Of a DNA stretch of 64,000 bases, positions 2,854 through 45,920 are shown piece by piece; position 1 is the first letter of the stretch; every line of letters starts with the position of its first letter. This DNA comes from an uncultured Cardiobacteriales bacterium. GTDB lineage: Bacteria; Pseudomonadota; Gammaproteobacteria; CAYWWW01. The stretch spans positions 71,223 to 135,222 of the forward strand of contig CAYWWW010000002.1 in the NCBI GenBank assembly GCA_964462205.1, written 5' to 3'. The notes under the pieces were generated by a model. That model was given only the letters and a program-made list of their open reading frames with translations, ran no database searches and was not told the origin of the DNA. The translations under genes and the position numbers were made by a program.

Positions 2854-3789
2854 TTAATCGTATTGGGTTTCTAAGAACAGGCGATATTCTTTCGGAATGA
2901 CATTAAACATGCGGCAGATGGGACTGGCGAAACCATTGTCATAACAACCATATTGACGTTCTAAGGCTTCGCGCTGTTTGGGATACCAGCCGCAAAAACC
3001 GTGTAAATTCAAGCTGTCTTCATAACGGGATTTGTCCACGCGCATTTTGACATTGCTGAAAATATAGCCGCTGGGCGTGCGTAAGGCGCTGACAAAGGCT
3101 TTGGCACCACCTGGGGACTGACTGCTGCCGCGTTCATTGCAATCCAATTCCCAAAAAATACCGTTGGGTTGTTCGCGAACAATGGTTAATTCATAGCGAC
3201 GGCGATCAGCAGCGGGAACGGCTTCATTTTTGGACATATTGGGTAAGCGCAGGCTGTTTTCCATTGGGTTGTCGGGTACGCTTGGCAATTGTGGCGCACC
3301 GGGGAACATGCTGGCTAATGGATCATCAGGATTGGGTTTTTGTTCTTCGGCTTCGATTTTGGCTTTCATATCATTAAAAGGTAAGCCGTTGACAAATAAG
3401 CGAATAGAAGATATTTGTTGCGCGGGATTAGCCTCAACCAGCATGACCACGACATCTTGGCCGCAACGCACGGCGATCTGTTGTTCCACGGCGGGGTCTT
3501 CGGCACTTGGATATTTGCTACGCGCTTGTACTTCAAAATTACCTTCAGGGGTGCGCGTCAGTAAAAACTCGCCCTCTGGTTGAATGTCAATAATATCATT
3601 GTCATAGGTTTCAATGGTGGTGTTGCCGGTATAAACGCAGGTGCCAGTTTCATTGCCGTCACCATTAAAATCGGGTAAGCGGGTTTGTTCTTCTTGCGCG
3701 CCTTGGCCGGAACCAAAACCAAGCGGTGCGCCAAAAAAGGCCAAAACTGGCCAAATGGAAAAAAGAGAAAAAAGAAGCAGAAAGCGCAT
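2854..3789 (-). CDS. hypothetical secreted protein, unknown function
   Basis: ORF-track frame 2854..3867 trimmed to the ATG at 3789, which is preceded by AGGA; N-terminus MRFLLLFSLFSIWPVLA looks like a signal peptide; no catalytic motif recognised. Confidence 0.5.
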   Translation of the reverse strand: MRFLLLFSLFSIWPVLAFFGAPLGFGSGQGAQEEQTRLPDFNGDGNETGTCVYTGNTTIETYDNDIIDIQPEGEFLLTRTPEGNFEVQARSKYPSAEDPAVEQQIAVRCGQDVVVMLVEANPAQQISSIRLFVNGLPFNDMKAKIEAEEQKPNPDDPLASMFPGAPQLPSVPDNPMENSLRLPNMSKNEAVPAADRRRYELTIVREQPNGIFWELDCNERGSSQSPGGAKAFVSALRTPSGYIFSNVKMRVDKSRYEDSLNLHGFCGWYPKQREALERQYGCYDNGFASPICRMFNVIPKEYRLFLETQYD

Positions 3790-15302: not shown

Positions 15303-16190
15303 TTAGGGTTTTTGTACTTGAAAACTTGCGATATTAGAAACTTGCTTATCACTTTTTACAACTTGAACCTGCCAGGGTGCGGGTGTAGTGCCAACATTGA
15401 TTTCATAAGCTAAGGTTTGTGCATCCAAAAATAAGGGAACGCGATCATTAAAATCCGCATAGCCCACCATCTTAAAATTTAACTTGTCCGTTTCAGCAAA
15501 ATTTTCGCCAAAAAGAATTAACCATTGCCGTTCACCAGAGGCTTTAGTAACTAGCGGATTTGGATAAATAAAAGAAATTTCTGGTGCCGGCTGACTTGCG
15601 CTTTCTACGACTTGGTTAAAACGACGTGGTAAATAATTGTTATCTCTGGCTAAAACCCGATGCGTAACGCCATCAATGCTTCCTGAGGTGGTGGATTCGT
15701 AGAGCATCATGCTGCCATCGCTATTGTAATAATGAAATAACCGCACATGACTCCCTGCTTTATTGACAATATCGCCAGCTTTTAAGTCCGACCAATTGAT
15801 TTGCTTAGAAATATTTGGCAGGCTGCGGGTGCTATATTTGCTTGAGGTTTCCCAGACCCGGCTGACAAAACCCGAGCAGTCAATACCGGCAAAATCGGTG
15901 CGAATATGCGTGGAATCATGCAAGGTTTTTTTGTCGTTGCCAGCGATACGGCCAGCATTAACTCGACTTAAAAATTCAGAAACGCTATTAAACCCACCCC
16001 AGTTATAGGCCATGCCGGTAACTTTTTGACCAATGCTGCGGTTATTCCAATAACTATTGGCATTACCGGATTTTACCGTCCATTGGACATTGGCAAAGGT
16101 TTCGGCGTTATCAATAATTTTTTGCCGATCAATGGCTGGTGCAGAAAGGGTGAAGCAAAAAATAATCAGAAAAAGTATAAAACGCATCAT
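15303..16190 (-). CDS. secreted papain-fold cysteine peptidase/amidase-like protein (NlpC/P60 or CHAP-like)
   Basis: start trimmed to ATGATG at 16190/16187 preceded by GGAG; signal peptide MMRFILFLIIFCFTLSAPA; catalytic-looking Cys in AGIDCSGFVSRVW and downstream His in AGSHVRLF. Confidence 0.55.
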   Translation of the reverse strand: MMRFILFLIIFCFTLSAPAIDRQKIIDNAETFANVQWTVKSGNANSYWNNRSIGQKVTGMAYNWGGFNSVSEFLSRVNAGRIAGNDKKTLHDSTHIRTDFAGIDCSGFVSRVWETSSKYSTRSLPNISKQINWSDLKAGDIVNKAGSHVRLFHYYNSDGSMMLYESTTSGSIDGVTHRVLARDNNYLPRRFNQVVESASQPAPEISFIYPNPLVTKASGERQWLILFGENFAETDKLNFKMVGYADFNDRVPLFLDAQTLAYEINVGTTPAPWQVQVVKSDKQVSNIASFQVQKP

Positions 16191-16242
16191 AAACTCCGAC
16201 ATGAAAGAAATAAAAGTTGAAGAAAAAACTTTAAGAAACAAA

Positions 16243-17709
16243 TCAACGCCATTGCAGCACTTCGGCACCGTTTGGCGTGGTGATCAATTGTTGCAATTGA
16301 CCATTTTTATCGCTTAATAATTTGCGATAACTGGTGGTGTGATAGTCATTCGGCAAGGCTTTTTCAGCGATAATTTTTTGCTTTTCCAAGTCTATTTCCA
16401 AGACTTTTAAGCCGACATAACCATCGGGATAGACATATTCTGCTTCCAATAACAAGTTACCAGCGGCAGTTTTGCCAATGGGACCGACAACGCCAAGGTC
16501 GCCAGCAGGGTTGAATGGTAACTGACCTTTGGGTTGACCTTCACTATCAAGTAACAACAAATTGACTTCTCTCGGATTTTTCCAAGAAGTGCGGATAAAA
16601 TCCTCACCAAAAGGATAGCCTGGCAATATCGGTTGTGGGTTGGTTAAAAGATTTTTACCTTTAGCAACCGCTTGACATTGTTGTAGTTTGCAAACATAGG
16701 TTTGACCATTTTCTTGATAAAAACCTTGGCGATAACCTTCGCTTTTGGGTAAGTCCTCTAAAGAAAAGCGTTGCTGATTCATCTGAATACCCGCAGCTTG
16801 CAAGGTAAGCAATTGATCACCAAGAGTAATCATATCTTCTACTTGCGTGTCAAAAGTTAAATTTTCCAACCAGTTGCCATTGCGATCATATTTTTTCACG
16901 GTTAAGCCATCGGCATCTAAAAGATAGCGATGGCCAGCGGCATCTACGGTAAAGGTTTGTGCGCCAACGGTTTCTAGTTCTTCACCCTGTTGTAACTCTA
17001 GGTTTTCTTTATCTTTTCCCCAAGGAACACTGAGTGCTGCGCTTAATTCTGGTAATTGATTTTGTAAGGCTTGCGGCAAACGTTGTTGCCAGTATTGACG
17101 ACGTTTTTCTAAATCAGTTTTTTCAGCAGAAAAGTTTTTTGCTTCAGTAGCTTGTGGTTCAGGACAGGGGCTTTCAGTGGAGAGGCAAATAGACAAATCA
17201 AGCAGCAAAGTTAAAAATTCTTGGCAGTTATCAGAAAAAATTGGGGTAATGATTTTTCCTTCGGCAAAAATAGCTTCGCCTTGATAGACTGGACAAGGGA
17301 GGTCTTTTTCATAATGTTTTGTTTTTATAAATTTTTCCATCAATAATTGACCTTTACCTTGCGGTTGACCAAAGGCAAAATCACCTTGATAGCGCATTTG
17401 AAAAGCATCGTCAGTGACCGTTAAATTGCCTTCACCATGCGCACGACCGATTTGAAATGTACCTTGAAAATGCCGGAAAGGTTCGGCCAATAGCGGGTCT
17501 TGTCGAGTGAGATCACCTTTGCCGCTGGCGAAACCGGCGCTGAATTGGCCGCGATAATGCCAAATGGCGAGAATACGCTCTTGATTTTGCAAAGTTAAAC
17601 GGTATTCTCCGATACCTTCTTGACAATCGCCAGAAAGGCATTGCGCAGCTAAGAGCGGTGAAAAAAATAAAGCGATCAGTGGCAAGGCTATGAATGATAA
17701 ATTAAACAT
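16243..17709 (-). CDS. secreted MORN-repeat protein, unknown function
   Basis: signal peptide MFNLSFIALPLIALFFSPLLAA; three MORN-like repeats (YRGQFSAGFASGKGDL, FQGTFQIGRAHGEGNL, YQGDFAFGQPQGKGQL) then about 330 aa without recognisable domain. Confidence 0.55.
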   Translation of the reverse strand: MFNLSFIALPLIALFFSPLLAAQCLSGDCQEGIGEYRLTLQNQERILAIWHYRGQFSAGFASGKGDLTRQDPLLAEPFRHFQGTFQIGRAHGEGNLTVTDDAFQMRYQGDFAFGQPQGKGQLLMEKFIKTKHYEKDLPCPVYQGEAIFAEGKIITPIFSDNCQEFLTLLLDLSICLSTESPCPEPQATEAKNFSAEKTDLEKRRQYWQQRLPQALQNQLPELSAALSVPWGKDKENLELQQGEELETVGAQTFTVDAAGHRYLLDADGLTVKKYDRNGNWLENLTFDTQVEDMITLGDQLLTLQAAGIQMNQQRFSLEDLPKSEGYRQGFYQENGQTYVCKLQQCQAVAKGKNLLTNPQPILPGYPFGEDFIRTSWKNPREVNLLLLDSEGQPKGQLPFNPAGDLGVVGPIGKTAAGNLLLEAEYVYPDGYVGLKVLEIDLEKQKIIAEKALPNDYHTTSYRKLLSDKNGQLQQLITTPNGAEVLQWR

Positions 17710-17840: not shown

Positions 17841-19178
17841 ATGACTGAACTTTTATCCCCCGCCGGCACTTTGAAAAATATGCGTTATGCCTTTGCTTAC
17901 GGTGCCGACGCTGTTTATGCCGGTCAACCCCGTTATTCGTTGCGGGTGCGCAATAATGATTTTTTGAACGATAATTTAACCATCGGCATTCAAGAAGCAC
18001 ACACACAAGGTAAGCGGTTTTATCTCACCTTAAATGGCATTCCGCACAACAATAAAACCAAGACCTTTCTTCGTGACTTGGAAGAAATCATGGACTTAAA
18101 ACCCGATGGCGTGATTATGGCCGATCCTGGGTTAATTGCCTTGGTGCGTGAAAAATATCCCGAATTGCCGGTGCATTTATCGGTGCAAATGAATACGGTC
18201 AATAGTTTGTCGGTGAAGTTTTGGCAAAGTTTAGGCTTAACTCGGGTGATTTTATCCCGCGAACTCGGGCTAGATGAAATTACTGAAATTAAAAGTGATT
18301 GTGCCGATATGGAACTCGAAGTTTTTGTCCACGGTGCTTTGTGTATTGCTTATTCAGGACGTTGTTTATTATCAGGTTATTTTAACCATCGTGATCCCAA
18401 TCAAGGTGCCTGTACCAATGCTTGTCGTTGGGAATATCAAACCGTGGCCGCCGAAGAAAATTTAACCGGTGAAGTCTTACCGATTTCTCGCCAGGCATTG
18501 GAAGCCATGGAGGCAATACCTTTGCAAAATCAAGCACAAGTAGTCAAACGGCATCCGGCTGCTGATAAAGTTTATTTATTGCAGGAAGCGCAGCGTCCGG
18601 GGGAATATTTTCCGATTTTAGAAGATGAGCATGGAACCTATATCATGAATTCCAAAGACTTGCGCGCTGTGCAGCATGTAGATGCCTTAGTAAAAATGGG
18701 TATGGATTGCTTAAAAATTGAAGGTCGTACCAAATCGCATTACTACGTCGCCCGCACCGCGCAGGTCTATCGGCAAGCCATTGACGATGCAAAGGCCGAA
18801 CGACCATTTAATCCTAAGTTGCTTTGGGAACTAGAAAATTTGGCCAATCGTGGTTATACCGAAGGTTTTTATGATCGGCATCCGCCGAATCATTATCAAA
18901 ATTATCAGCAGGATATTTCCCGTAGCAGTCAACAGCAATTTGTCGCTGAAGTGCTTGATAGTCATGGAGACTGGTTGACCGTTGACGTAAAAAATAAATT
19001 TGCGGTTGGCGATACATTACAATGGTTATCCCCGTTGGGTAACGTGGATTTTGTGCTGACAGCCATGGAAAATCTCCACGGTGAAAAAATGGCTTTAGCA
19101 CCCGGTGCTGGTTATCGGGTACGCATCCCAATGCCCGCGCCTTTTCATCCCTATGCTTTGTTATTGCGTTATTTCTAA
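17841..19178 (+). CDS. trhP: U32 family peptidase-like protein, short form (YegQ/TrhP-like tRNA hydroxylation protein)
   Basis: 445 aa; N-terminus ELLSPAGTLKNMRYAFAYGADAVYAGQPRYSLRVRNN and internal EAQRPGEY..EDEHGTYIMNSKDLRA closely follow E. coli YegQ as recalled. Confidence 0.7.
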   Translation: MTELLSPAGTLKNMRYAFAYGADAVYAGQPRYSLRVRNNDFLNDNLTIGIQEAHTQGKRFYLTLNGIPHNNKTKTFLRDLEEIMDLKPDGVIMADPGLIALVREKYPELPVHLSVQMNTVNSLSVKFWQSLGLTRVILSRELGLDEITEIKSDCADMELEVFVHGALCIAYSGRCLLSGYFNHRDPNQGACTNACRWEYQTVAAEENLTGEVLPISRQALEAMEAIPLQNQAQVVKRHPAADKVYLLQEAQRPGEYFPILEDEHGTYIMNSKDLRAVQHVDALVKMGMDCLKIEGRTKSHYYVARTAQVYRQAIDDAKAERPFNPKLLWELENLANRGYTEGFYDRHPPNHYQNYQQDISRSSQQQFVAEVLDSHGDWLTVDVKNKFAVGDTLQWLSPLGNVDFVLTAMENLHGEKMALAPGAGYRVRIPMPAPFHPYALLLRYF

Positions 19179-19203: not shown

Positions 19204-19219
19204 TTTATGCCTCTGCCTT
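19204..19219 (+). repeat. 16-nt repeat TTTATGCCTCTGCCTT, copy upstream of fbpA
   Basis: exact copy also at 20414..20429; 15-nt match at 45177..45191; one-mismatch copy at 26096..26109. Confidence 0.6.
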
Positions 19220-19313
19220 GATTAGCGATTGCAGGGAATGGCTTGCAATGCAAAATAAAAACGGTTAGCATTGCCTTGCTTTTGAAATTTAATCGTAAAA
19301 AAAGGAGAACTTT

Positions 19314-20321
19314 ATGATTCGTTTTGCTTTTATGTTTTTGTCTTTGTGGTTAGCTGGTAGTGCTCTGGCGCAAGGCGTGGTCAATGTTTATTCAGCACGC
19401 CAAGAAGCCTTAATTAAGCCATTATTCGATGAATTTACGCAAGAAACTGGTATTAAAGTTAATATTTTAAGTGCCAAGGCCGAGGCTTTAATTGAGCGTC
19501 TGCGTTTAGAAGGCGCTCGTTCACCTGCCGATATTTTGTTGACCGTAGATGCTGGCAACCTTTATACCGCCAAAGCCGATGGTTTATTTGAAGTTTTACC
19601 AGCTTCTGTTCGTGCTTCAGCGCCTGCTGCAATGCAAGATGCCGAAGGTGCTTGGGTAGCTTTGTCCATGCGGGCACGACCAATTTTTGCTGCTAAAGCA
19701 CGGGTGGCGGCTGACATGAGCATGAATTACGAAGATTTAGCTAATCCTGGCTTAAAAGGCAAAGTTTGTATTCGTTCTTCAGGAAATATCTATAATCAAT
19801 CCATGGTTGCGGCAATGCTTGCGCAGCTTGGTGCTGAAAAAACCACAGCTTGGGCAAAGGGACTGGTGGCCAATTTTGCGCGTCCGCCGGTGGGTGGCGA
19901 CCGCGACCAAATCAAAGCCGTGGCTGCGGGTGAATGTGATTTTGCCGTTGCTAACACCTATTATTATGCGGGGATGCTGACTGGTAGCAAAGCCGATGAA
20001 AAAGCCGCAGCCGAACAAGTTTTTATCATTTGGCCGAATCAAAATGATCGCGGTACGCATGTCAATGTCAGCGGTGCTGGTATCTTAAAATCTGCTAAAA
20101 ATACTGAAAATGCTGAAAAATTATTAACTTTTTTGTTAAGTCCAAAAGCGCAAGCCTGGTATGCTGAACAAAATGGTGAATATCCGGTGGTTGCAGGTGC
20201 AGCTTTAAGTGCCGTTTTGACAAATTTAGGTAGCTTCAAAAAAGAACAAGTGGATTGGAATGTTTTGGGAAAAAATAACGCTGAAGCCGTGAAACTTATG
20301 GATCGTGCCGGTTGGAAATAA
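19314..20321 (+). CDS. fbpA: Fe(3+)-binding periplasmic protein (FbpA/AfuA-type ABC substrate-binding protein)
   Basis: signal peptide; AGGAG ribosome-binding site; GARSPADI, ANTYYYAG and C-terminal MDRAGWK parallel Neisseria FbpA as recalled; no permease or ATPase gene adjacent. Confidence 0.65.
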   Translation: MIRFAFMFLSLWLAGSALAQGVVNVYSARQEALIKPLFDEFTQETGIKVNILSAKAEALIERLRLEGARSPADILLTVDAGNLYTAKADGLFEVLPASVRASAPAAMQDAEGAWVALSMRARPIFAAKARVAADMSMNYEDLANPGLKGKVCIRSSGNIYNQSMVAAMLAQLGAEKTTAWAKGLVANFARPPVGGDRDQIKAVAAGECDFAVANTYYYAGMLTGSKADEKAAAEQVFIIWPNQNDRGTHVNVSGAGILKSAKNTENAEKLLTFLLSPKAQAWYAEQNGEYPVVAGAALSAVLTNLGSFKKEQVDWNVLGKNNAEAVKLMDRAGWK

Positions 20322-20372
20322 GACCTTAGCTATTTATTTAACTGTAAAATTTTCGTAAAAATTCGTAAAAAA

Positions 20373-20399
20373 AGGACGCAATAGCCGCGTCCTTTTTTA
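20373..20399 (+). terminator. intrinsic terminator after fbpA
   Basis: stem AGGACGC/GCGTCCT with 7-nt loop followed by T6; A-run upstream. Confidence 0.7.
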
Positions 20400-20413
20400 T
20401 GGCGAAAATAAAG

Positions 20414-20429
20414 TTTATGCCTCTGCCTT
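20414..20429 (+). repeat. 16-nt repeat TTTATGCCTCTGCCTT, copy downstream of fbpA
   Basis: identical to 19204..19219; the two copies flank fbpA as direct repeats about 1.2 kb apart. Confidence 0.6.
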
Positions 20430-20475
20430 AAAATTCATTGCTATTGAAAAAACCAAGCGGAAAGACATCTTCTGC

Positions 20476-21135
20476 TTAAAATTTTCCACAGGCAGCTTCA
20501 ACATCTGCCGCCATTTTTTCAGGATGATGCGGTGGAAAAAAGGCACCTAAATACCTTCCTTCGGGAGTAAATAATAAACTCTGCGCACTGTGATCCAAAA
20601 GATAGGCATCTTGTTGTTCGGGATTAAAGGGATTGGCTTGTTTTTGATAAAAAATATCTAATGGTTTTGTCAATAGGCGCAACTCTGCTGCTTCTCCTGA
20701 TAAGGCAATAAAACTTTCATGAAAAAATGCCAGATATTCGGGTAAGCGTTCTGGTGTGTCGCGCTCAGGATCAAGCGAAATAAAATGTACTTGCAGGTTT
20801 TTTTGTGTACTTTCCGATAATTTTTGATACATTTCACTTAAAGAAAATAAAGCCATCGGACAAATATCTGGGCAAAAGGTATAACCAAAATAAATCAATT
20901 GACAGCGTGGTGCTTCTTTTGGAAAAAAATAATTTTTATCGTAACTTTGGCCAGCATAATGTAGAACTTGTTCAGGCCAGGTGCGTGCTTGTGAATCAGG
21001 ACGCAATTCTTGCCAGTCTATGCTTTTAAAATTTTGTAAAAATTGATTTTTTTCTGAAGTAGTTGGCGGTTGTAACCAAAAAGCCAGGCCAAGTGTGGCC
21101 AAGGCGAGTAGAATGTTGAAGGCTTTGGTCATCAT
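20476..21135 (-). CDS. SCO1/SenC family copper chaperone (thioredoxin fold)
   Basis: N-terminal membrane anchor; CPDICP metal-binding motif. Confidence 0.8.
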   Translation of the reverse strand: MMTKAFNILLALATLGLAFWLQPPTTSEKNQFLQNFKSIDWQELRPDSQARTWPEQVLHYAGQSYDKNYFFPKEAPRCQLIYFGYTFCPDICPMALFSLSEMYQKLSESTQKNLQVHFISLDPERDTPERLPEYLAFFHESFIALSGEAAELRLLTKPLDIFYQKQANPFNPEQQDAYLLDHSAQSLLFTPEGRYLGAFFPPHHPEKMAADVEAACGKF

Positions 21136-25890: not shown

Positions 25891-26436
25891 CTACATTTTT
25901 TTATTGAGTAGTTGTAAATAAACTTGACCAAGAGGTTTTTGCTTTAACAACTGCCAATGTTTTAAATCGGTTGCTTGTAACGGAATTGGACTTTCTACAT
26001 ATAATAACCCATTACCTTTCAAAAGGTTGTAAGCGTTAGTGATGGCCATTGACCAAAGATTTTCGGCAAAAGGGGGATCTAAAAAAATAATATCATATAC
26101 CTCTGCCTTGTTTTTATAAAAACTTAGAAAATTTTGTTGATGTAAGGCGTAATTATTAGGTTGCCAATTTTTAAGATTTTGTTTCAAAAAAGAAAAAGTT
26201 AAGGGATCGATTTCACAAAAATCCACAAATGCCGCCTCTCTGGATAAACACTCAATACCCAAAGCGCCGCTGCCGGCGAAGGCATCTAGGCAATAGGCAC
26301 CAGGAATTTGCCATTGCAACCAATTAAATAAGGTTTCGCGGGCGCGGTCGCCACTGGGTCGCAATCCTGGTCGGTCAGGAAAGCGCAATAAATGGCGGCG
26401 CCAGCTACCACCAATGATACGTACTTGATTTGTCAC
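25891..26436 (-). CDS. rsmD: 16S rRNA (guanine966-N2)-methyltransferase
   Basis: 181 aa; DAFAGSGALGIE SAM-binding motif and IIFLDPPF motif. Confidence 0.8.
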   Translation of the reverse strand: MTNQVRIIGGSWRRHLLRFPDRPGLRPSGDRARETLFNWLQWQIPGAYCLDAFAGSGALGIECLSREAAFVDFCEIDPLTFSFLKQNLKNWQPNNYALHQQNFLSFYKNKAEVYDIIFLDPPFAENLWSMAITNAYNLLKGNGLLYVESPIPLQATDLKHWQLLKQKPLGQVYLQLLNKKM

Positions 26437-26484: not shown

Positions 26485-27798
26485 TTATTGTCCAGTACCG
26501 ACTTGTATTTTTATCAAAGCATCTGGCAATAGGTACTTTTCAATGGCTTTGTTGACCTCTGCCTTGGATACCGCATGAATTTTTTCTTGAAATTTTCCGA
26601 TCCTATCCAATTCTAAATCATAAAAAGCGATGCTACCGACCTGGGATAAGATGCTGCGGTTGCTGCTGATTGTTAAAGGAAAGCTATTGATAAGATTTTC
26701 TTTAGCATCGTTAAACTCAGTATCACTGAAACCTTGTTGCCGTAAATTGTCGAGTGTTTCTTGAATAAGCGCTAAGGCTTGCGTGCTTTGTTCCACACGT
26801 GTTTGCAGCCGAATGCTAAAAATACTACCGTCGCGCATTGGAATGATATGGCTGTAAATTCCGTAGGTTAAGCCACGTTCAACCCGCACTTTTTGCATCA
26901 AGCGTGAAGAAAAACCATTGCCACCCAAAAGATGATTGGCAACCAGCAGCGGATAATAATCGGGATGCGTGCGCGGAATAGTGACATAACCTAAAATAAG
27001 ATGTGCTTGTTGGCTAGGGAAGTTAATAATTTGTTGTTTTGGCTCACTTTTAGTTAAGGAAACTTGTGCTGCCGCGCCGCCGTTATCAGCCAAAGCAGTG
27101 CTGACTTTTTCTGACAGTGCTTCGGCTTGTTGATGGCTTAGGTCGCCAACGATCACTAGTTTAGCATTGTGACGATGATAAAAATTCTGATAAAAAGTCT
27201 TTAGGTCTTCAATGGTTAGCGCCATAAGGCTTTTCTCTGTACCTAAGCTGGGTTGACCCAAAGCACTATCAGGAAAAAGTGCTTGATAAAAGGCTTCATT
27301 GGCCAGATAACTGGGGTCTTGTTGTTGATCGCGGTATTGGCTTAATAATTGCTCACGGACCCGCTGCCAGTCCTCTTGGCGAAATTCGGCTTTGCTGATA
27401 ATTTTTAGCCATAAATCAAGCGCTTCATTGAGCGTGTCGCTGTCGCTTAAACTGCGCAAGCGAATGCCTGCGCCCTCTCGACGCGAGGTCAAGGCAATTT
27501 CCGCGCCCAGGCTTTCTAATTTTTCTGCCCAATAGGTTTGCGGCTGACCATCGGCGTATTCATAAAACATGGCGTTGGTGGCATTGGCCAAACCGTTTTT
27601 TTCGCCATCATAAGCACTGCCAGCGGCAAATAATAATTCAATATCCACCATAGCCGGACTTGGACTATAAACCCAATAAACACCTAAGCCGGCTTTAGTT
27701 TGCCAATGGACAATATTTTCCAAGGCATTGCTGGAACTGCTAAAAATGCTTAAAAAAATCAGCGTCAGGAAATAATTTTTGCTGGGAAAAAACTGCAT
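26485..27798 (-). CDS. M16 family peptidase-like protein, partner subunit lacking HxxEH
   Basis: 437 aa with signal peptide; M16-like fold features but no inverted zinc motif; immediately downstream of the HxxEH-containing paralogue. Confidence 0.6.
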   Translation of the reverse strand: MQFFPSKNYFLTLIFLSIFSSSSNALENIVHWQTKAGLGVYWVYSPSPAMVDIELLFAAGSAYDGEKNGLANATNAMFYEYADGQPQTYWAEKLESLGAEIALTSRREGAGIRLRSLSDSDTLNEALDLWLKIISKAEFRQEDWQRVREQLLSQYRDQQQDPSYLANEAFYQALFPDSALGQPSLGTEKSLMALTIEDLKTFYQNFYHRHNAKLVIVGDLSHQQAEALSEKVSTALADNGGAAAQVSLTKSEPKQQIINFPSQQAHLILGYVTIPRTHPDYYPLLVANHLLGGNGFSSRLMQKVRVERGLTYGIYSHIIPMRDGSIFSIRLQTRVEQSTQALALIQETLDNLRQQGFSDTEFNDAKENLINSFPLTISSNRSILSQVGSIAFYDLELDRIGKFQEKIHAVSKAEVNKAIEKYLLPDALIKIQVGTGQ

Positions 27799-31155: not shown

Positions 31156-33186
31156 TTATTCAGCGCCGTCCTCTTCCCCTTTGCTACGCTGGACGCTCGG
31201 ACGGTATTTGCGCCGTCGCAAGGGATAACGGCTGTTGCGTTTGCTATCCTCGTTGTCGTTATTCGCAGTCAACTTGGGGCGAATAATCACCGGTGCTTTA
31301 TCAGTTTTTTCGAGTTCGCTGGGATTTTTTTCGTTGGCTTTGTCTTGCTTTTCCAAAGCCTTGCCAGTTTTTTCTGCTGCTGGCGTTTTTTTGCTACCCG
31401 GCAACTGGACAGTTGGCGCTTGGCGTGGGGTGTCACTGAACTGATTTTTTGGCGTTGCTGGACTCGGCGTTGCTTCTACGACCTGTGCTATGGCCGTGGC
31501 TTGGCTTTTTTTCAGTGGTCGCGCAAACCATCTTAGCCAAAAACCTGACCAAAACCCGTAAGTTGCTTTGCTATCCTCTGTATCATTGGCGACGCTGGCC
31601 GTCTCTGCTGCTGGTTTTATGGCGAACAAACCTGGGTTGCTGGTCTGCGAGATATAGGCTTTATTTGGTTGTTGTTCTTTTAACCATTCGTAACTCCCCT
31701 TGCCTTCTGGTGCCGCGCTTACTACAACATCTTTGCTATCAATGTTTTGCAGATGTGGGTTGGGAATAACCAATAACTGTGTCTGGTAAAAACTTTCAAA
31801 TTCTTGAATAGTATGTCTTTTTTCATTCAAGAGATAAGTTGCAACATCCAGAGGTACTTGCGCGGTGATTTTGCCAGGCTTGCTTTCCGACTGCATCGCC
31901 AATTCATGACAGAGACGCAACACATAATCGGCAGAAGATGGCGTGCTGCGCACCCGACCAGAACCGCCACAGCGTGGACAAACAATTTGACTGGTTTCCC
32001 CCAAAGACGGTTGCAAGCGCTGGCGTGACATTTCCAGTAAACCAAAGCGGGAAATGCGACCGACTTGGACGCGGGCACGGTCTTGATACAGCGCTTCTTT
32101 GAGGCGATTTTCGACTTCGCGCTGGTGGCGATTGTCGCTCATATCAATAAAATCAATAACAATCAAGCCGCCAATATCGCGCAAGCGCAGTTGACGGGCG
32201 ATTTCATCTGCCGCTTCCAAGTTGGTATTTAAGGCAGTTTCTTCGATGTCGTTGCCGGCGGTGGCGCGGGCGGAGTTGATGTCAATGGCTACCAAGGCTT
32301 CGGTGTAATCCACGACAATCGAGCCGCCAGACGGCAGTTGAATTTCATGTTGATAGGCGGTTTCAATTTGATTTTCAACGCGAAATTGATTGAATAGCGG
32401 AATTTCCGACTCATAAAAATGCAGTTTTTCGACGCTGTGCGGCATCATGGTCTGCATAAAAGTTTTTGCTTCGGCAAAGCGCTCTGGTTCATCAATAAGA
32501 ATTTCGTCAATATCAGGCCGTAAATAATCGCGTAAGGCGCGAATAATCAGTTTGCTTTCTTGATGAATCAGTGCGGGTTTGCGCGACGGTTTCTGATAAG
32601 CCTCTTCAATGCTTTGCCAAACTTTCAATAAATAATCTAAATCCCATTGGAGCTCTTGTTGATTGCGGCCTACGCCGGCGGTGCGCACGATAATCCCCAT
32701 GCCCTCGGGGATGATAAGGCTCCCCATGATTTCCTTCATGGCTTGGCGGTCTTCGCCTTCGATGCGCCGCGACACGCCACCAGCGCGGGGATTATTCGGC
32801 ATCAATACCAGATAACGTCCAGCCAAACTGACATAAGTCGTCAGCGCAGCACCTTTGTTACCGCGTTCTTCTTTTTCAATTTGAACAATGACTTGCTGAC
32901 CTTCGCTGAGGCTGTCTTTGATCTGGCCACGGACGATATTGCCTTCCCCCTGCAAAAAATTACGGGCGATTTCTTTAAAAGGCAAAAAACCATGGCGTTC
33001 ACCACCATAATCCACAAACGCCGCTTCTAAGCTCGGTTCGATACGGGTGATGGTGCCTTTGTAAATATTGGCTTTTTTTTGTTCTCGACTTAACAGTTCG
33101 GTGTCGAAATCGTAGAGTTTGTCGCCATCCATGATTGCAACCCGAAGTTCTTCGGGATGGGTGGCATTGATTAACATCCGTTTCAT
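31156..33186 (-). CDS. rne: ribonuclease E (short-tail form)
   Basis: 676 aa; N-terminal S1 and catalytic region (MKRMLINAT..); Zn-link motif [10 protein letters not shown]; Arg/Lys-rich C-terminal tail; divergent from rluC as in E. coli. Confidence 0.85.
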
Positions 33187-34713: not shown

Positions 34714-35442
34714 ATGTCATCTCCTGATTTTAAAACGCTGACTTCTAAAGATTTTCCAGAAAATTTCGATAAAATAAGGCATTGTGAATTGCTTATTTTC
34801 GATTGGGATGGCACCTTGGCCAATTCCACTGACCGCATTATTGATGCCATGCAGCGTGCCGCGGTTGCTTGCCATTTGCCGCCGCCAAGTGCCTCGGCGG
34901 TTGCGGCGATCATCGGTTTGGCTTTGCCGGAAGCCTTAGCGCAACTTTTTCCCGCTGCCACTACCACCACTTTGGCTTGTTTAAGTGCTGGTTATCGCCA
35001 ATGGTTTTTATACGACAGTTCCGTCCCTGATGATTTATTCCCAGGTGTTGCGCACTTGCTACAGGACTTACAGCAAGCGGGTTTTTTATTGGCCGTAGCC
35101 ACTGGCAAAAGCCGTCTTGGCTTAAATCGCAGTTTGCGCAAGCAGCAGGTGGCTTCTTATTTTGTCTATAGCCGCTGTGCCGATGAAAGTGCCTCAAAAC
35201 CTAATCCGCTGATGTTAAAACAAATTTTAGCAGCTTGTGCCTTGCCGCCAACGGCAAGCTGTTTGGTCGGCGACAGTGTTTTTGATATACAGATGGCGCA
35301 AACCTTGGCGATAACCACGCAGGCGGTCGGTTTTGGTGCCGGGCATCCCGATGCCTTGCAAGCCTTGTCGCCGGATTATTATTTTTCTACCCCGGAAGCC
35401 TGGATTGCTTTTTGGCGGAATGTTTTAAGCGAATTTTTTTAA
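34714..35442 (+). CDS. HAD-superfamily hydrolase
   Basis: motif I LLIFDWDGTL; 242 aa; same position as the HAD hydrolase after rluC in Pseudomonas-type synteny (from memory). Confidence 0.7.
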   Translation: MSSPDFKTLTSKDFPENFDKIRHCELLIFDWDGTLANSTDRIIDAMQRAAVACHLPPPSASAVAAIIGLALPEALAQLFPAATTTTLACLSAGYRQWFLYDSSVPDDLFPGVAHLLQDLQQAGFLLAVATGKSRLGLNRSLRKQQVASYFVYSRCADESASKPNPLMLKQILAACALPPTASCLVGDSVFDIQMAQTLAITTQAVGFGAGHPDALQALSPDYYFSTPEAWIAFWRNVLSEFF

Positions 35443-36580: not shown

Positions 36581-37207
36581 ATGGCGGATTTTCGTAAAGC
36601 GCTGGTTGTGGATGACTCAAAACTTGCCCGTTTTACCTTGACTAAAATCCTCGAAAAAATGGGTTTTGAGGTCTCCGGGGTCATCTCTGGCGAGGAGGCG
36701 TTGCTTGCGGTAGAGCAAGCGCCACCAGATTTGATTTTCATGGATTTTCAAATGCCTGGCATTGATGGTTATGAAGCCAGCGCTCGTATTACCGCACAAA
36801 AATCTATTCCTATCATTATCTGCACCGCGCAAGAGGATTACGAACAGGAGTTGGCGCGTGCCAAAGCACACGGCGCTTTTGACCTGTTACGCAAACCGGT
36901 GACGGAAGAAGGTGTGGAAGGCGTGATGCAAAAAATTCACAAGCATTGGCAAGCAGCACCCCAACAAGCGGTGGTTGCTCCGGCTGCCGTGCCGGCTGAC
37001 GTGGTGACCCCGCTGCCTTCTCCCGAAATGCTGGCGGCGTTTTTTCAACAAGAAGCCGCCTGGTGTCAAAGCCAAGTGCAAGAGGCGCTGCGTGGCCTGT
37101 TGATGGAAAAAATTTCGCTCTACTTGGCCAGGGAATTAACGCCTATCTTGATGCAAAAACTTCAGGTGCATTTTCAAGAATGGTTAGAAAAGCACGGAAA
37201 AAGCTGA
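36581..37207 (+). CDS. stand-alone response-regulator receiver protein with uncharacterised C-terminal tail
   Basis: GGGAG ribosome-binding site; REC residues VVDDS, phospho-acceptor Asp in LIFMDFQMPGIDG, IICTAQ, LRKP; about 85-aa tail with no helix-turn-helix. Confidence 0.8.
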   Translation: MADFRKALVVDDSKLARFTLTKILEKMGFEVSGVISGEEALLAVEQAPPDLIFMDFQMPGIDGYEASARITAQKSIPIIICTAQEDYEQELARAKAHGAFDLLRKPVTEEGVEGVMQKIHKHWQAAPQQAVVAPAAVPADVVTPLPSPEMLAAFFQQEAAWCQSQVQEALRGLLMEKISLYLARELTPILMQKLQVHFQEWLEKHGKS

Positions 37208-37268: not shown

Positions 37269-37886
37269 ATGAAAACAGCATTAGTGGTGGATGATTCCCG
37301 TTTGGCGCGAATCAGTTTGACAAAAATTCTTGAAAAATTAGGCATGCAGGTAGATGCCGTTGAAAACGGTCGGGTGGCGCTGGATTTTTTGAAATCAACA
37401 GATAATCCGCGTCCTGACATTATTTTTATGGATTATTTAATGCCTGAAATGAATGGTTACGAAGCGACCAAGGCTATCAGTAGTAATCCCCATACCATGC
37501 ACATTCCCGTCATCATCTGCACCTCGCAGGAAGACGAAGACAGAGAGCGGCAACGCGCCCGCGCCAATGGTGCGCAAGGCTTTATCAAAAAGCCCATCAC
37601 CGATGAAAAAGTCAATGAAGTTATTCAAGATATGCGCTCAAAAACCCGTGCTGCACCGGCAGCGACAAGTGCACCACCTTCCGATGAAGCGCTACAAAAA
37701 TCTATCAAAACCACCTTGCAAAAATATCTGCCCGACTTAACCGCCGAGATTGCCAAAAAAGTCGAGCATGATTTACTCGAGCATCTGCAAAAGGTCGCAG
37801 CACAACAAAAAGCGCAGCATGAACAACTGGATAGCTTGCATAAACGCCTAAGTCGTATTGAGCAGTTTTTGATGAAAAAAACTTAA
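37269..37886 (+). CDS. stand-alone response-regulator receiver protein, paralogue of the upstream gene
   Basis: AGGA ribosome-binding site; REC residues VVDDS, IIFMDYLMPEMNG, ICTSQ, IKKP; Ala/Pro-rich linker then helical-looking tail. Confidence 0.8.
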   Translation: MKTALVVDDSRLARISLTKILEKLGMQVDAVENGRVALDFLKSTDNPRPDIIFMDYLMPEMNGYEATKAISSNPHTMHIPVIICTSQEDEDRERQRARANGAQGFIKKPITDEKVNEVIQDMRSKTRAAPAATSAPPSDEALQKSIKTTLQKYLPDLTAEIAKKVEHDLLEHLQKVAAQQKAQHEQLDSLHKRLSRIEQFLMKKT

Positions 37887-38680: not shown

Positions 38681-39202
38681 ATGATAACACTAGATATGCC
38701 CCTGCCCTATCTGCGCTTGGCACGCGACCAAACGGTTTTACAAGGCGAGACCCCCTTGCGGGATTTTCCGCGTCTGTTGCCGGAACTGACCGATTTCCCC
38801 GCCACTGACAGCCCGCAGCTCTACTACCGATTAGCCTGGCGGCTTTGGCCAGCCTCAAGCCTCGCTGCTGCACAAGGACAATTGATCACCACCTTGCCTT
38901 TGCGCTGTCAACGGTGTTTGCTGCCATTGGCTTGGCCGCTGGTCTATGACCTGCATTGGGTATTTATTGACAAGCCGGAGGATGCTGAGGTTTTGCCGGA
39001 GGATGTAGAAGCGATTGATCCAAAAGAAGCGCTGTCGGTATTGAATTTACGCTATCTTTTAGAAGACAGCCTGCTTTTGGCGCTGCCTTTGTTTCCGCGG
39101 CATCCCGATGCGGATTGCGCGGGACTCGGCACGATTGGCAAAGCACGGCCACAGCCCTTTGCGGCACTGGCCGACTTAAAAATTCGTAAAAAAGACCCCT
39201 AA
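38681..39202 (+). CDS. yceD: YceD family protein (DUF177)
   Basis: start trimmed to the ATG at 38681; Cys pairs CQRC and DADCAGLG; position directly upstream of rpmF. Confidence 0.7.
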   Translation: MITLDMPLPYLRLARDQTVLQGETPLRDFPRLLPELTDFPATDSPQLYYRLAWRLWPASSLAAAQGQLITTLPLRCQRCLLPLAWPLVYDLHWVFIDKPEDAEVLPEDVEAIDPKEALSVLNLRYLLEDSLLLALPLFPRHPDADCAGLGTIGKARPQPFAALADLKIRKKDP

Positions 39203-44662: not shown

Positions 44663-45781
44663 ATGCAAGCAAAAATTTTTAATACCGCCGCAAACCGCTC
44701 AGAAAACAGCGCTGAGCGACTTTGGACGCTGGCTGATTTCCATTATGTGTTGCCAGCGCAGTTGATCGCGCAACTGCCGCTGCCGCTGCGTTCGGCCAGC
44801 CGTTTATTGTGTGTAGCGCCTGGCAGCCAAGATTTTTTACACAAAACTATCAAAGACTTGCCTGATCTATTGCAGCCTGGCGACTTGCTTGTTTTCAACG
44901 ACACCAAGGTGCTGCCGGCGCGGTTTTTTATGCAACGGCAATCCGGCGCGGTGCATGAACTGCTGATGGAACGTATCTTGCCAACTACAAAACAATTTTT
45001 AGCCAAAGTCCGTCGTTCCAAAGCCTTGAAAGTCAATGAAGTTTTATCGTTGGTCAATCAGCCAGAAATTTATTTTACGGTTTTGTCGAAAGGCGAAGAC
45101 GGCCTTATCACCTTGCGTTTTGACTGGCCAGCCGCACCAGAGGCGACCTTGCTGGACTTATGCGAAACCTACGGTCTTATGCCTCTGCCTTCTTATATTG
45201 AACGGGCGGCAACGTTGGCCGATCACAGCCGCTACCAGACAGTTTTTGCCAAAAATCCAGGCGCGGTGGCGGCACCGACAGCGAGCTTACATTTCGATGC
45301 CGAACTTTTGGCACAATTGGCGGCAAAGGGCGTGGCGCAAACTTTTGTCACCCTGCATGTGGGTGCTGGCACCTTTACGCCGGTGCGTGTGGCCAATATT
45401 GCCGAACACACCATGCACGCCGAGCGCTTTTTTTTGCCAGAGGCGACGAAAGAATTGATTTTAGAAACAAAAAAACAAGGCCGACGGGTGATCGCCGTCG
45501 GCACCACGGTGCTGCGGACTTTGGAAGGTGCTTACCAGCAAGGCTTTCAGGCTGGTGCTGCCGAAACGACAATTTTTATTTACCCAGGCTTTACTTTTCA
45601 GATGGTGGATGGCTTGTTGACCAATTTTCATCTGCCAGAGTCCACGTTATTGATGCTGGTGGCAGCCTTTGCTGGTTATGAAACCACCATGGCGGCCTAT
45701 CAGGCGGCGATTCAACAAAGCTATCGTTTTTATAGTTACGGCGATGCCATGTTGATTTTGCCAGGTTGCTTTGCTGGATGA
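44663..45781 (+). CDS. queA: S-adenosylmethionine:tRNA ribosyltransferase-isomerase
   Basis: colinear with E. coli QueA as recalled (FHYVLP..RSASRLL, DLLVFNDTKVLPAR, GHMPLP-like MPLPSYIER, VGAGTF, TNFHLPESTLLMLV, FYSYGDAM); start uncertain (ATG 44663 or TTG 44657). Confidence 0.85.
   Translation: MQAKIFNTAANRSENSAERLWTLADFHYVLPAQLIAQLPLPLRSASRLLCVAPGSQDFLHKTIKDLPDLLQPGDLLVFNDTKVLPARFFMQRQSGAVHELLMERILPTTKQFLAKVRRSKALKVNEVLSLVNQPEIYFTVLSKGEDGLITLRFDWPAAPEATLLDLCETYGLMPLPSYIERAATLADHSRYQTVFAKNPGAVAAPTASLHFDAELLAQLAAKGVAQTFVTLHVGAGTFTPVRVANIAEHTMHAERFFLPEATKELILETKKQGRRVIAVGTTVLRTLEGAYQQGFQAGAAETTIFIYPGFTFQMVDGLLTNFHLPESTLLMLVAAFAGYETTMAAYQAAIQQSYRFYSYGDAMLILPGCFAG
45177..45191 (+). repeat. 15-nt copy of the TTATGCCTCTGCCTT repeat inside queA
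   Basis: exact 15-nt match to the copies flanking fbpA; here it encodes LMPLP. Confidence 0.5.
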
Positions 45782-45826: not shown

Positions 45827-45920
45827 TAAAAATTTTCGCCTAAAAGTTTATCTAAAAGTTTCATTCAAAAAAGTTATCTAAAAAAGTTATCTAAAAAAGT
45901 TATTGAGAGCATCCCAATGC
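45827..45920 (+). promoter_or_regulatory. AT-rich tandem repeat array ending in AGCATCCCAATGC, overlapping the bioF-like start codon
   Basis: units TAAAAGTTTATC / TAAAAGTTTCAT / TCAAAAAAGTTATC / TAAAAAAGTTATC / TAAAAAAGTTATTG then GAGAGCATCCCAATGCG, in which ATG is the bioF-like start. Confidence 0.45.

Follow-up and report, generated by a model that had tools for sequence, protein, structure and literature searches.

A direct repeat conserved on both sides of an orphan fbpA gene in an uncultured gammaproteobacterial clade

Asymmetric class I activator sites are known from the 20-bp marbox of the monomeric AraC/XylS proteins MarA, SoxS and Rob, and from the boxes of the iron-uptake activators PchR and YbtA. 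Auxiliary operators that work by looping include lac O1/O2/O3, gal OE/OI, the deo operators and lambda OL–OR. Here we analyse a 64-kb stretch of DNA from an uncultured Cardiobacteriales bacterium (contig CAYWWW010000002.1; hereafter the window), in which two identical copies of a short element flank an orphan gene for an FbpA-type iron-binding protein. Both copies are kept at the same locus in three related lineages. By analogy, the element would be closest in its working to an asymmetric class I activator site or to a looping operator pair; as no regulator was identified, no named family can be assigned to it.

Like class I sites, the element is non-palindromic (14–18 bp), lies ~60–70 bp before the start of a weak predicted promoter at a fixed spacing, and stands beside an iron-acquisition gene. 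Unlike them, it has no AraC-type gene identified in its neighbourhood, it recurs as an identical second copy behind the gene, and it is invariant at 14 positions where theirs follow a degenerate consensus. We know of no activator box that it resembles in sequence. With looping operators it shares identical sites placed before and after a transcription unit, with hundreds to thousands of base pairs between them; those operators, however, are dyad-symmetric and bound by dimers or tetramers, whereas the element is a direct tandem repeat with no known repressor.

The 16-mer TTTATGCCTCTGCCTT is present in two exact copies on the + strand, at 19204–19219 and 20414–20429, as the first-pass annotation of the window had reported.

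19204–19221, + strand: upstream copy, TTTATGCCTCTGCCTT followed by GA, exact match; core TATGCCTCTGCCTT at 19206–19219.
20414–20431, + strand: downstream copy, TTTATGCCTCTGCCTT followed by AA, exact match; core at 20416–20429.
19314–20321, + strand: fbpA/futA-like gene for an Fe(3+) substrate-binding protein (335 aa, signal peptide), orphan.

The upstream copy lies 94 nt 5' of the fbpA start codon (ATG at 19314), and the downstream copy lies 93 nt 3' of its stop (20321). The 14-nt core TATGCCTCTGCCTT is non-palindromic and contains two tandem TGCCTY hexamers (TGCCTC TGCCTT); it is followed by two purines. Neither the 64-kb window nor ~52 kb of DNA from relatives yielded a further intergenic copy, and a full-text literature search with the word returned plant primer sequences only. 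Taken by itself, an exact 16-nt pair is not beyond chance, because by our own calculation DNA of this composition should contain ~0.6 exact 16-nt direct pairs per 64 kb, and two more exact direct pairs, each of 17 nt, are present in the window (16721/35300 and 20356/39177). For the pre-specified word, allowing up to two mismatches, 3 matches were observed versus 0.04 in shuffles. We judge the element to be real because its two copies occupy the intergenic regions on either side of a single gene and are both kept in the three other lineages.

The relatives compared with the lineage of the window were L117, L127 and L116, whose FbpA proteins are 91%, 90% and 86% identical to that of the window, respectively. 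The L116 DNA spans 21 kb and is fully syntenic (trhP–fbpA–SCO1(−)–prmB). For an identical FbpA protein, only one NCBI contig and an identical Logan contig are on record. The first-pass annotation had named, as evidence against its reading, relatives that carry fbpA at this locus without the repeats; instead, all three relatives have fbpA between trhP and SCO1 together with both copies, as in the window (four of four lineages). The eight flanking sites read as follows.

Window lineage: upstream TTTATGCCTCTGCCTTGA; downstream TTTATGCCTCTGCCTTAA.
L117: upstream CTTATGCCTCTGCCTTGA; downstream CTTATGCCTCTGTCTTGA.
L127: upstream CTTATGCCTCTGCCTTAG; downstream TTTATGCCTCTGCCTTGA.
L116: upstream TTTATACCTCTGCCTTGA; downstream TCTATGCCTCTGCCTTAA.

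All of these fit TAT[G/A]CCTCTG[C/T]CTT, with 110 of 112 core bases kept. The upstream core is identical in L117 and L127 and reads TATACCTCTGCCTT in L116; the downstream core is identical in L127 and L116 and reads TATGCCTCTGTCTT in L117. Four-fold degenerate sites of fbpA are only 0.39–0.58 identical among the window lineage, L116 and the L117/L127 pair (0.70 for L117 versus L127), which indicates that neutral DNA is near saturation. Since nearly all core bases are kept while the DNA immediately flanking each copy is unalignable among lineages, both copies are under strong purifying selection. This comparison of sequences shows the two copies to be a selectively maintained cis-element. It appears to be specific to the orphan-fbpA locus of this clade, and would represent a new, clade-specific element of a familiar general kind. 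A short exact repeat that is statistically unremarkable can thus be validated by phylogenetic footprinting, and look-alikes in coding DNA can be separated from functional copies.

The intergenic regions on either side of fbpA contain a candidate promoter and a terminator shared with the convergent neighbour.

17841–19178, + strand: trhP, U32 peptidase-family tRNA U34 hydroxylase gene (NCBIfam NF011996, 722 bits).
19243–19271, + strand: candidate sigma-70 promoter of fbpA, with −35 TTGCAA (19243–19248), a 17-nt spacer and −10 TAGCAT (19266–19271).
20374–20398, no strand assigned: bidirectional intrinsic terminator of fbpA (+) and SCO1 (−), GGACGC-AATAGCC-GCGTCC, lying between an A-run and a T-run.
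20476–21135, − strand: convergent SCO1/SenC gene (Pfam PF02630), synteny conserved.

We infer that the fbpA promoter lies at 19243–19271. The four lineages differ neither in the two hexamers nor in the 17-nt spacing, and the match to consensus is weak (8/12), below the 9/12 threshold of the promoter scan, which is why the candidate is absent from the scan listing. Invariant hexamers and spacing at such a match are what a factor-dependent promoter would show. Between the upstream element and the predicted −35 lie 22–23 nt in each of the four lineages, even though this spacer cannot be aligned, and the centre of the element lies ~66 bp 5' of the predicted transcription start (near 19278). The other spacers in these intergenic regions vary by 4–60 nt; the trhP stop lies 23–27 nt from the upstream element, and the fbpA stop 29–52 nt from the terminator hairpin. 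Within the sequence as read, no terminator separates the trhP stop from the upstream copy. The predicted 42-nt fbpA leader, with GGAG, is mostly invariant in the four lineages, and the promoter spacer nearly so.

An inverted repeat, GCAATGC-N16-GCATTGC (19245–19274), spans the −35 to −10 region of the predicted promoter. Together with the near-invariant spacer and leader, it suggests a second operator or a degenerate Fur box (10–12/19) overlapping the promoter.

Behind fbpA, the shared terminator (read from the sequence and folded) has a conserved stem and a variable loop in the four lineages. The downstream element starts 23 nt past the hairpin in three lineages and 31 nt past it in L117, and its distance to the SCO1 stop is 46 nt in the window, 54 nt in L116 and roughly 110 nt in L127. 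Terminator and element are the sole conserved blocks of this region. Owing to its place behind the shared terminator, the downstream copy would be transcribed in the sense direction only by read-through, and in antisense within the SCO1 3' untranslated region (3'UTR), which would carry the reverse complement of the copy.

Three matches to the word lie in coding DNA.

45176–45191, + strand: look-alike in queA, 15/16 match, with 45177–45191 exact; codes for L-M-P-L-P-S.
26096–26109, + strand: look-alike in rsmD, TATACCTCTGCCTT, 13/14 (13/16 over the full word); antisense to K-A-E-V-Y codons.
26556–26565, + strand: look-alike in an M16 peptidase gene, exact 10-nt core CCTCTGCCTT; antisense, K-A-E-V; absent from the first-pass annotation.

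The 15-nt match in queA and the one-mismatch match in rsmD are located where they had been reported, but their reading as further copies of the same element does not hold. At the queA site, L119 has CTTATGCCGCTGCCTT, and L120, which comes from the sample that also gave L116, has GTGATGCCGTTGCCTT; this is ordinary synonymous drift in what we take to be the conserved MPLPPYI region of QueA. The RsmD orthologue of L116 encodes KIESY at this position, with no motif match, and the M16 orthologue of L116 has no match to the core. Being coding sequence that decays in relatives, the three look-alikes are not part of the element. They nevertheless exceed a synonymous-codon-shuffle null (2 versus ~0.04 for the 14-mer with at most one mismatch; 3 versus ~0.1 for the 10-mer). 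This excess, all on the + strand, is minor and we leave it unexplained; the choice of core was partly post hoc. A degenerate intergenic copy of the 16-mer with a one-base deletion, TTTATGCCTCGCCTTT, was seen in L120 (11170–11185), 45 nt past the queA stop; the window has nothing comparable at the corresponding place.

Of the three options offered by the first-pass annotation, a regulatory site fits best on account of the constant spacing to a conserved predicted promoter; an interspersed repeat and a recombination pair were not supported. We tentatively propose, with a probability of roughly 40%, that the element is a non-palindromic binding site for a sequence-specific DNA-binding regulator of fbpA. 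Such a regulator is favoured by the constant spacing, by the weak, factor-dependent-looking promoter, by the lack of a convincing Fur box and by substitutions that are independent and uncompensated. Two properties of a transcription-factor operator were examined: conservation exceeds the neutral level (110/112 core bases versus a four-fold identity of 0.39–0.70), and a fixed distance to the predicted promoter was found for the upstream copy only. The two copies have the same orientation as DNA and opposite senses as RNA (trhP 3' region versus SCO1 3'UTR), so that one factor could read both only as DNA. The pair has only two kinds of consistent reading, namely recognition of the duplex, by a protein or a recombinase, or pairing between an upstream sense and a downstream antisense transcript.

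In the proposed mechanism, one sequence-specific regulator would recognise double-stranded DNA at both copies. Bound at the upstream site, it would activate the weak fbpA promoter or control its output in some other way, and might in addition block transcription running in from trhP, a gene that lacks its own terminator. The downstream site, behind the shared fbpA/SCO1 terminator, would serve as an auxiliary site, either closing a ~1.2-kb loop around fbpA or shielding the unit, as a roadblock or insulator, from convergent transcription of SCO1. The binding protein, the promoter and the looping or insulation are all inferred.

Fur itself does not account for the element. Taking a match of at least ~13/19 to GATAATGATAATCATTATC in the promoter as a Fur box, the four orphan-fbpA lineages reach 10–12/19 at best, and the 16-mer itself has no resemblance to it. 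The nearest FbpA homologues outside the clade (60–63% identity) are encoded in classical fbpA–fbpB–fbpC operons in unrelated contexts, where the motif is absent; upstream of fbpABC in L121 (5950–5990) and L123 (5930–5960), Fur-box-like sequences reach 14–15/19. This difference makes a regulator other than Fur plausible. If the element is an operator, it would mark non-classical-Fur regulation of an orphan FutA/FbpA-type protein adjoining a copper chaperone (SCO1), and the 14-nt word would offer a means of tracing the regulator and its regulon. As a separate observation, in L123–L126 a response regulator with a GerE domain is encoded directly upstream of fbpABC.

Several points weigh against an operator. 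No candidate regulator was identified, and the fbpA promoter is a prediction. The second copy has nothing to activate beyond it on the + strand, which leaves the role assigned to it ad hoc. Identity of two paralogous sites over 14–16 contiguous positions is stricter than is usual for protein operators and more in keeping with pairing of nucleic acids or with recombination cores. The 6-bp tandem sets its half-sites on different faces of the helix, unlike the 10–11-bp phasing of OmpR/PhoB-type sites. The excess of coding look-alikes (2 versus 0.04) also hints at some wider distribution of the word. The general importance of the element is modest unless pairing of RNA or a cassette, both weighed below, proves true.

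Strict identity of this kind would be explained if the transcripts pair. The sequence AAGGCAGAGGCAUAAA in the 3'UTR of the SCO1 mRNA could pair perfectly with UUUAUGCCUCUGCCUU in the trhP 3' region or in a trhP–fbpA read-through transcript, and such a duplex would tie the expression of SCO1 to processing of the trhP–fbpA junction, to its stability or to read-through across it. The strict 14-base contiguous conservation suits base pairing, complementarity extends over 16–17 nt in the window and 10–12 contiguous nt in the other lineages, the upstream copy can be reached from trhP without crossing a terminator, and the change T>C at position 1 of both L117 copies is possibly concerted. Just upstream of the SCO1 terminator, AAGGCAGAGGCAUAAA resembles the seed of a 3'UTR-derived small RNA; as in the Hfq-type small RNAs CpxQ and DapZ, a conserved single-stranded-type seed lies ~25–35 nt before an intrinsic terminator at the mRNA end, and motif and terminator are the only conserved blocks of this 3'UTR. 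Yet two of the three interior substitutions give A·C or C·A mismatches (position 6, L116 upstream; position 13, L117 downstream) and are non-compensatory, and the putative target, unlike the targets of those RNAs, is not a ribosome-binding site. It lies 5' of the predicted fbpA promoter and hence is absent from the mRNA of fbpA itself, and the constant spacing to the predicted −35 goes unexplained. Nor does any conserved secondary structure free the seed: RNAalifold found no covariation in the upstream intergenic region, with the motif in a loop, and single-sequence folds of either strand revealed no shared structure, the seed being paired differently in each lineage. No Rfam family matched; sub-threshold chance matches fell on the terminator, and two tRNAs alone passed in the whole window. 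Pairing of the motif with the fbpA ribosome-binding site (anti-Shine–Dalgarno) was rejected at 4–5 bp at most. On balance we consider an RNA–RNA link unlikely. Stated more broadly, identity of the copies might be needed for nucleic-acid pairing instead of protein binding, either with the SCO1 3'UTR in trans or as the crossover cores of a cassette, and these two versions taken jointly seem rather unlikely. The former would be an antisense link built by duplication of a 16-nt sequence instead of by overlap; the latter would be a minimal, recombinase-less single-gene cassette of an undescribed type, whose direct-repeat cores have no dyad symmetry. Far less probable than any of these is a translated mini-open reading frame (ORF), ATG CCT CTG CCT stop (M-P-L-P-stop, with a C-terminal proline), acting as a leader or arrest peptide. 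At all eight sites CCT is indeed followed by an in-frame stop (TGA, TAA or TAG), despite at least three changes there, and in three lineages the downstream copy forms the end of an ORF of 10 codons, M[A/V]K[I/V]K[F/S]MPLP, the window and L127 differing synonymously only. A purine–purine constraint alone, however, yields a stop in three of four cases. The third positions of CCT CTG CCT are invariant at the eight sites, and the only two changes, ATG>ATA (L116 upstream) and CCT>TCT (L117 downstream), include no synonymous one, the opposite of selection on a peptide. Every copy lacks a preceding Shine–Dalgarno sequence, and the downstream copy is behind a terminator with no gene to regulate. The loss of the start in L116, the missing Shine–Dalgarno sequences and the lack of a synonymous excess led us to reject the mini-ORF. 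Also rejected were readings of the motif as a sigma-54, sigma-32, ECF-type or minus-strand promoter, none of which is conserved (by eye, four lineages), and minus-strand small ORFs ending KAEA-stop, with start and length not conserved.

A recombinase could likewise read both copies as DNA. In that case fbpA with its promoter and terminator (1185–1210 bp) would have been inserted between trhP and SCO1 by site-specific recombination, and the copies would be attL/attR-like cores still recognised by a recombinase encoded elsewhere, making the unit a cis-mobilisable element. The direct repeats exactly bracket one complete transcription unit, their strict identity fits the homology needed between partner sites, and fbpA is an orphan with its nearest relatives in fbpABC operons elsewhere. 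Moreover, the first copy lies 25–27 nt 3' of a housekeeping gene, trhP, which is a common integration position, and direct repeats of 15–20 bp around a discrete, possibly acquired gene near a housekeeping 3' end are a likeness to attL/attR cores and integron attC sites. Against this, the core is a direct tandem without dyad symmetry, unlike tyrosine or serine recombinase sites, and it lacks inverted-repeat arms, an attC-like imperfect palindrome and a GTTRRRY core; no inverted partner of the core within four mismatches was found in any flanking intergenic region. On its anatomy, Xer/dif was rejected along with att and attC (TATGCC versus AAGGCA, 3/6), and a transposon target-site duplication was rejected as well, there being no terminal inverted repeats at the inner edges of the copies and no gene other than fbpA in the 1.2-kb unit between them. 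Integrase, transposase and resolvase Pfam families were absent from the gene tables of L116, L119 and L120, which cover ~9–31 kb and 36–56 kb of the window by synteny. All four lineages carry the gene with both copies at the same place and none has an empty site; the outgroups are non-syntenic, and an SCO1 look-up gave the same contig only. Searches of plasmids and phages with blastn gave no match, a scan of viral contigs gave three chance-level matches, and metagenome scans, one with FbpA and one with an alignment of FbpA, gave none. Relic att sites would also escape the purifying selection seen here on both copies. The recombination pair proposed earlier, which would have mobilised fbpA, thus remains unsupported by dyad symmetry, a nearby recombinase, presence/absence polymorphism or plasmid and phage relatives, and we hold a cassette to be improbable. 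So, too, is a sparse, genome-wide oriented motif, whether uptake-signal-like or a polar leading-strand signal, of which the fbpA copies would be conserved instances and those in queA, rsmD and the M16 gene younger ones. The 10-mer CCTCTGCCTT occurs five times on the + strand (leading, GC-skew positive) and never on the − strand, the coding copies exceed the codon-shuffle null, and the queA site gains matches stepwise from L120 through L119 to the window. The element further resembles the DNA uptake sequence (DUS) of Neisseriaceae, ATGCCGTCTGAA, and the uptake signal sequence (USS) of Pasteurellaceae in being short, non-palindromic, oriented and beside a terminator, with a superficial likeness of ATGCC-TCTG to ATGCCGTCTG in DUS. 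But its length and register are unlike those of the 12-nt DUS, and 2 intergenic and 1–3 partial coding copies in 64 kb are far below the density of known uptake sequences, which reach hundreds to thousands of copies (~1 per kb) across both strands, in coding as well as non-coding DNA; a DUS/USS-type identity was rejected as too sparse. In an unbiased scan of 12-mer neighbourhoods of the window, the element word was absent from the top 40 over-represented, whereas GCATCCCAATGC was among the top words. For these reasons, low density and no over-representation, the interspersed or uptake-like repeat suggested in the first pass was not borne out. The coding copies are not kept in L116 or L120, no other intergenic copies occur in the window or in related DNA, and a scan of genome contigs with the 15-mer gave at least 114 matches, those listed being single, chance-level ones in unrelated genomes. 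Many 10-mers show a similar excess (AAGGCTTTGG, 6+2; TAAGGCTTGC, 5), and CCTCTGCCTT was chosen post hoc. The remaining probability falls to functions that we did not consider.

FbpA matches Pfam SBP_bac_1/6/8/11 and shows full-length similarity (~315 residues each) to the solved Fe(3+)-binding periplasmic proteins 6g7n (E = 5e-93), 2pt1 (E = 5e-88) and 1q35 (E = 9.5e-74), placing it among the FbpA/FutA iron-binding substrate-binding proteins. No fbpB or fbpC homologue is present in the 64-kb window, where the sole ABC ATPase match is lptB; the lack of a permease and ATPase partner noted in the first pass thus extends to the whole window. Outside the clade, the closest TrhP shares 66% identity and is encoded at a non-syntenic locus. 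Upstream of trhP, the window encodes two clade-specific proteins on the − strand, one of 488 aa (16243–17709) with only a weak MORN-repeat match and one of 321 aa (15303–16268) with a faint NlpC/P60-like match; L116 has genes of similar size there.

Among 12-mer neighbourhoods of mixed composition in the window, the most over-represented is GCATCCCAATGC(C), a quasi-palindrome (GCAT-CCCA-ATGC). It has 4 exact and 11 one-mismatch copies, 15 in total, versus 0.2–1.3 expected, and ~11 coding copies versus ~0.6 after synonymous-codon shuffling.

Window copies of GCATCCCAATGC: 11893(−), 19123, 33274(−), 34336, 35343, 38324(−), 39100, 39263, 42524, 43903(−), 45909, 53188, 53680(−), 54012, 59186(−).
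L119 copies of GCATCCCAATGC: 3209, 3899, 4573(−), 7003, 13868, 14363(−).

The copies occur on both strands, in several reading frames and also in intergenic DNA. The word is enriched in the close relative L119 (6 in 16 kb), and not in L116/L120 (1 in 35 kb) or the outgroups. A literature search did not find it as a bacterial motif. GCATCCCAATGC, and not the fbpA motif, looks like a lineage-specific word of the uptake-signal or HIP1 type. One copy contains the start codon of an aminotransferase gene (45917), directly upstream of which AAAAAGTTATCT(A) is repeated three times in tandem at a 13-nt period, the third copy being degenerate (45868–45905).

The other 17-nt direct repeats of the window are AAACCTTGGCGATAACC (16721–16737 and 35300–35316) and TAAAAATTCGTAAAAAA (20356–20372 and 39177–39193); the 20356 copy of the latter abuts the fbpA terminator and is not conserved in relatives. 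The 10-mer AAGGCTTTGG occurs on the + strand at 3095, 7247, 21119, 37961, 56948 and 59565 and on the − strand at 31353 and 45018 (6+2 versus 1.2 after codon shuffling), and TAAGGCTTGC has five copies in the window. As many as 127 10-mers have at least four copies in the window, several with equally low expectation; apparent repeat statistics in this genome are inflated by its strong codon-pair or oligonucleotide bias. Finally, adjacent genes at 36581–37207 and 37269–37886 encode ~205-aa proteins that combine a response-regulator receiver domain with an unassigned ~90-aa C-terminal half without a Pfam match, and both are conserved in L120.

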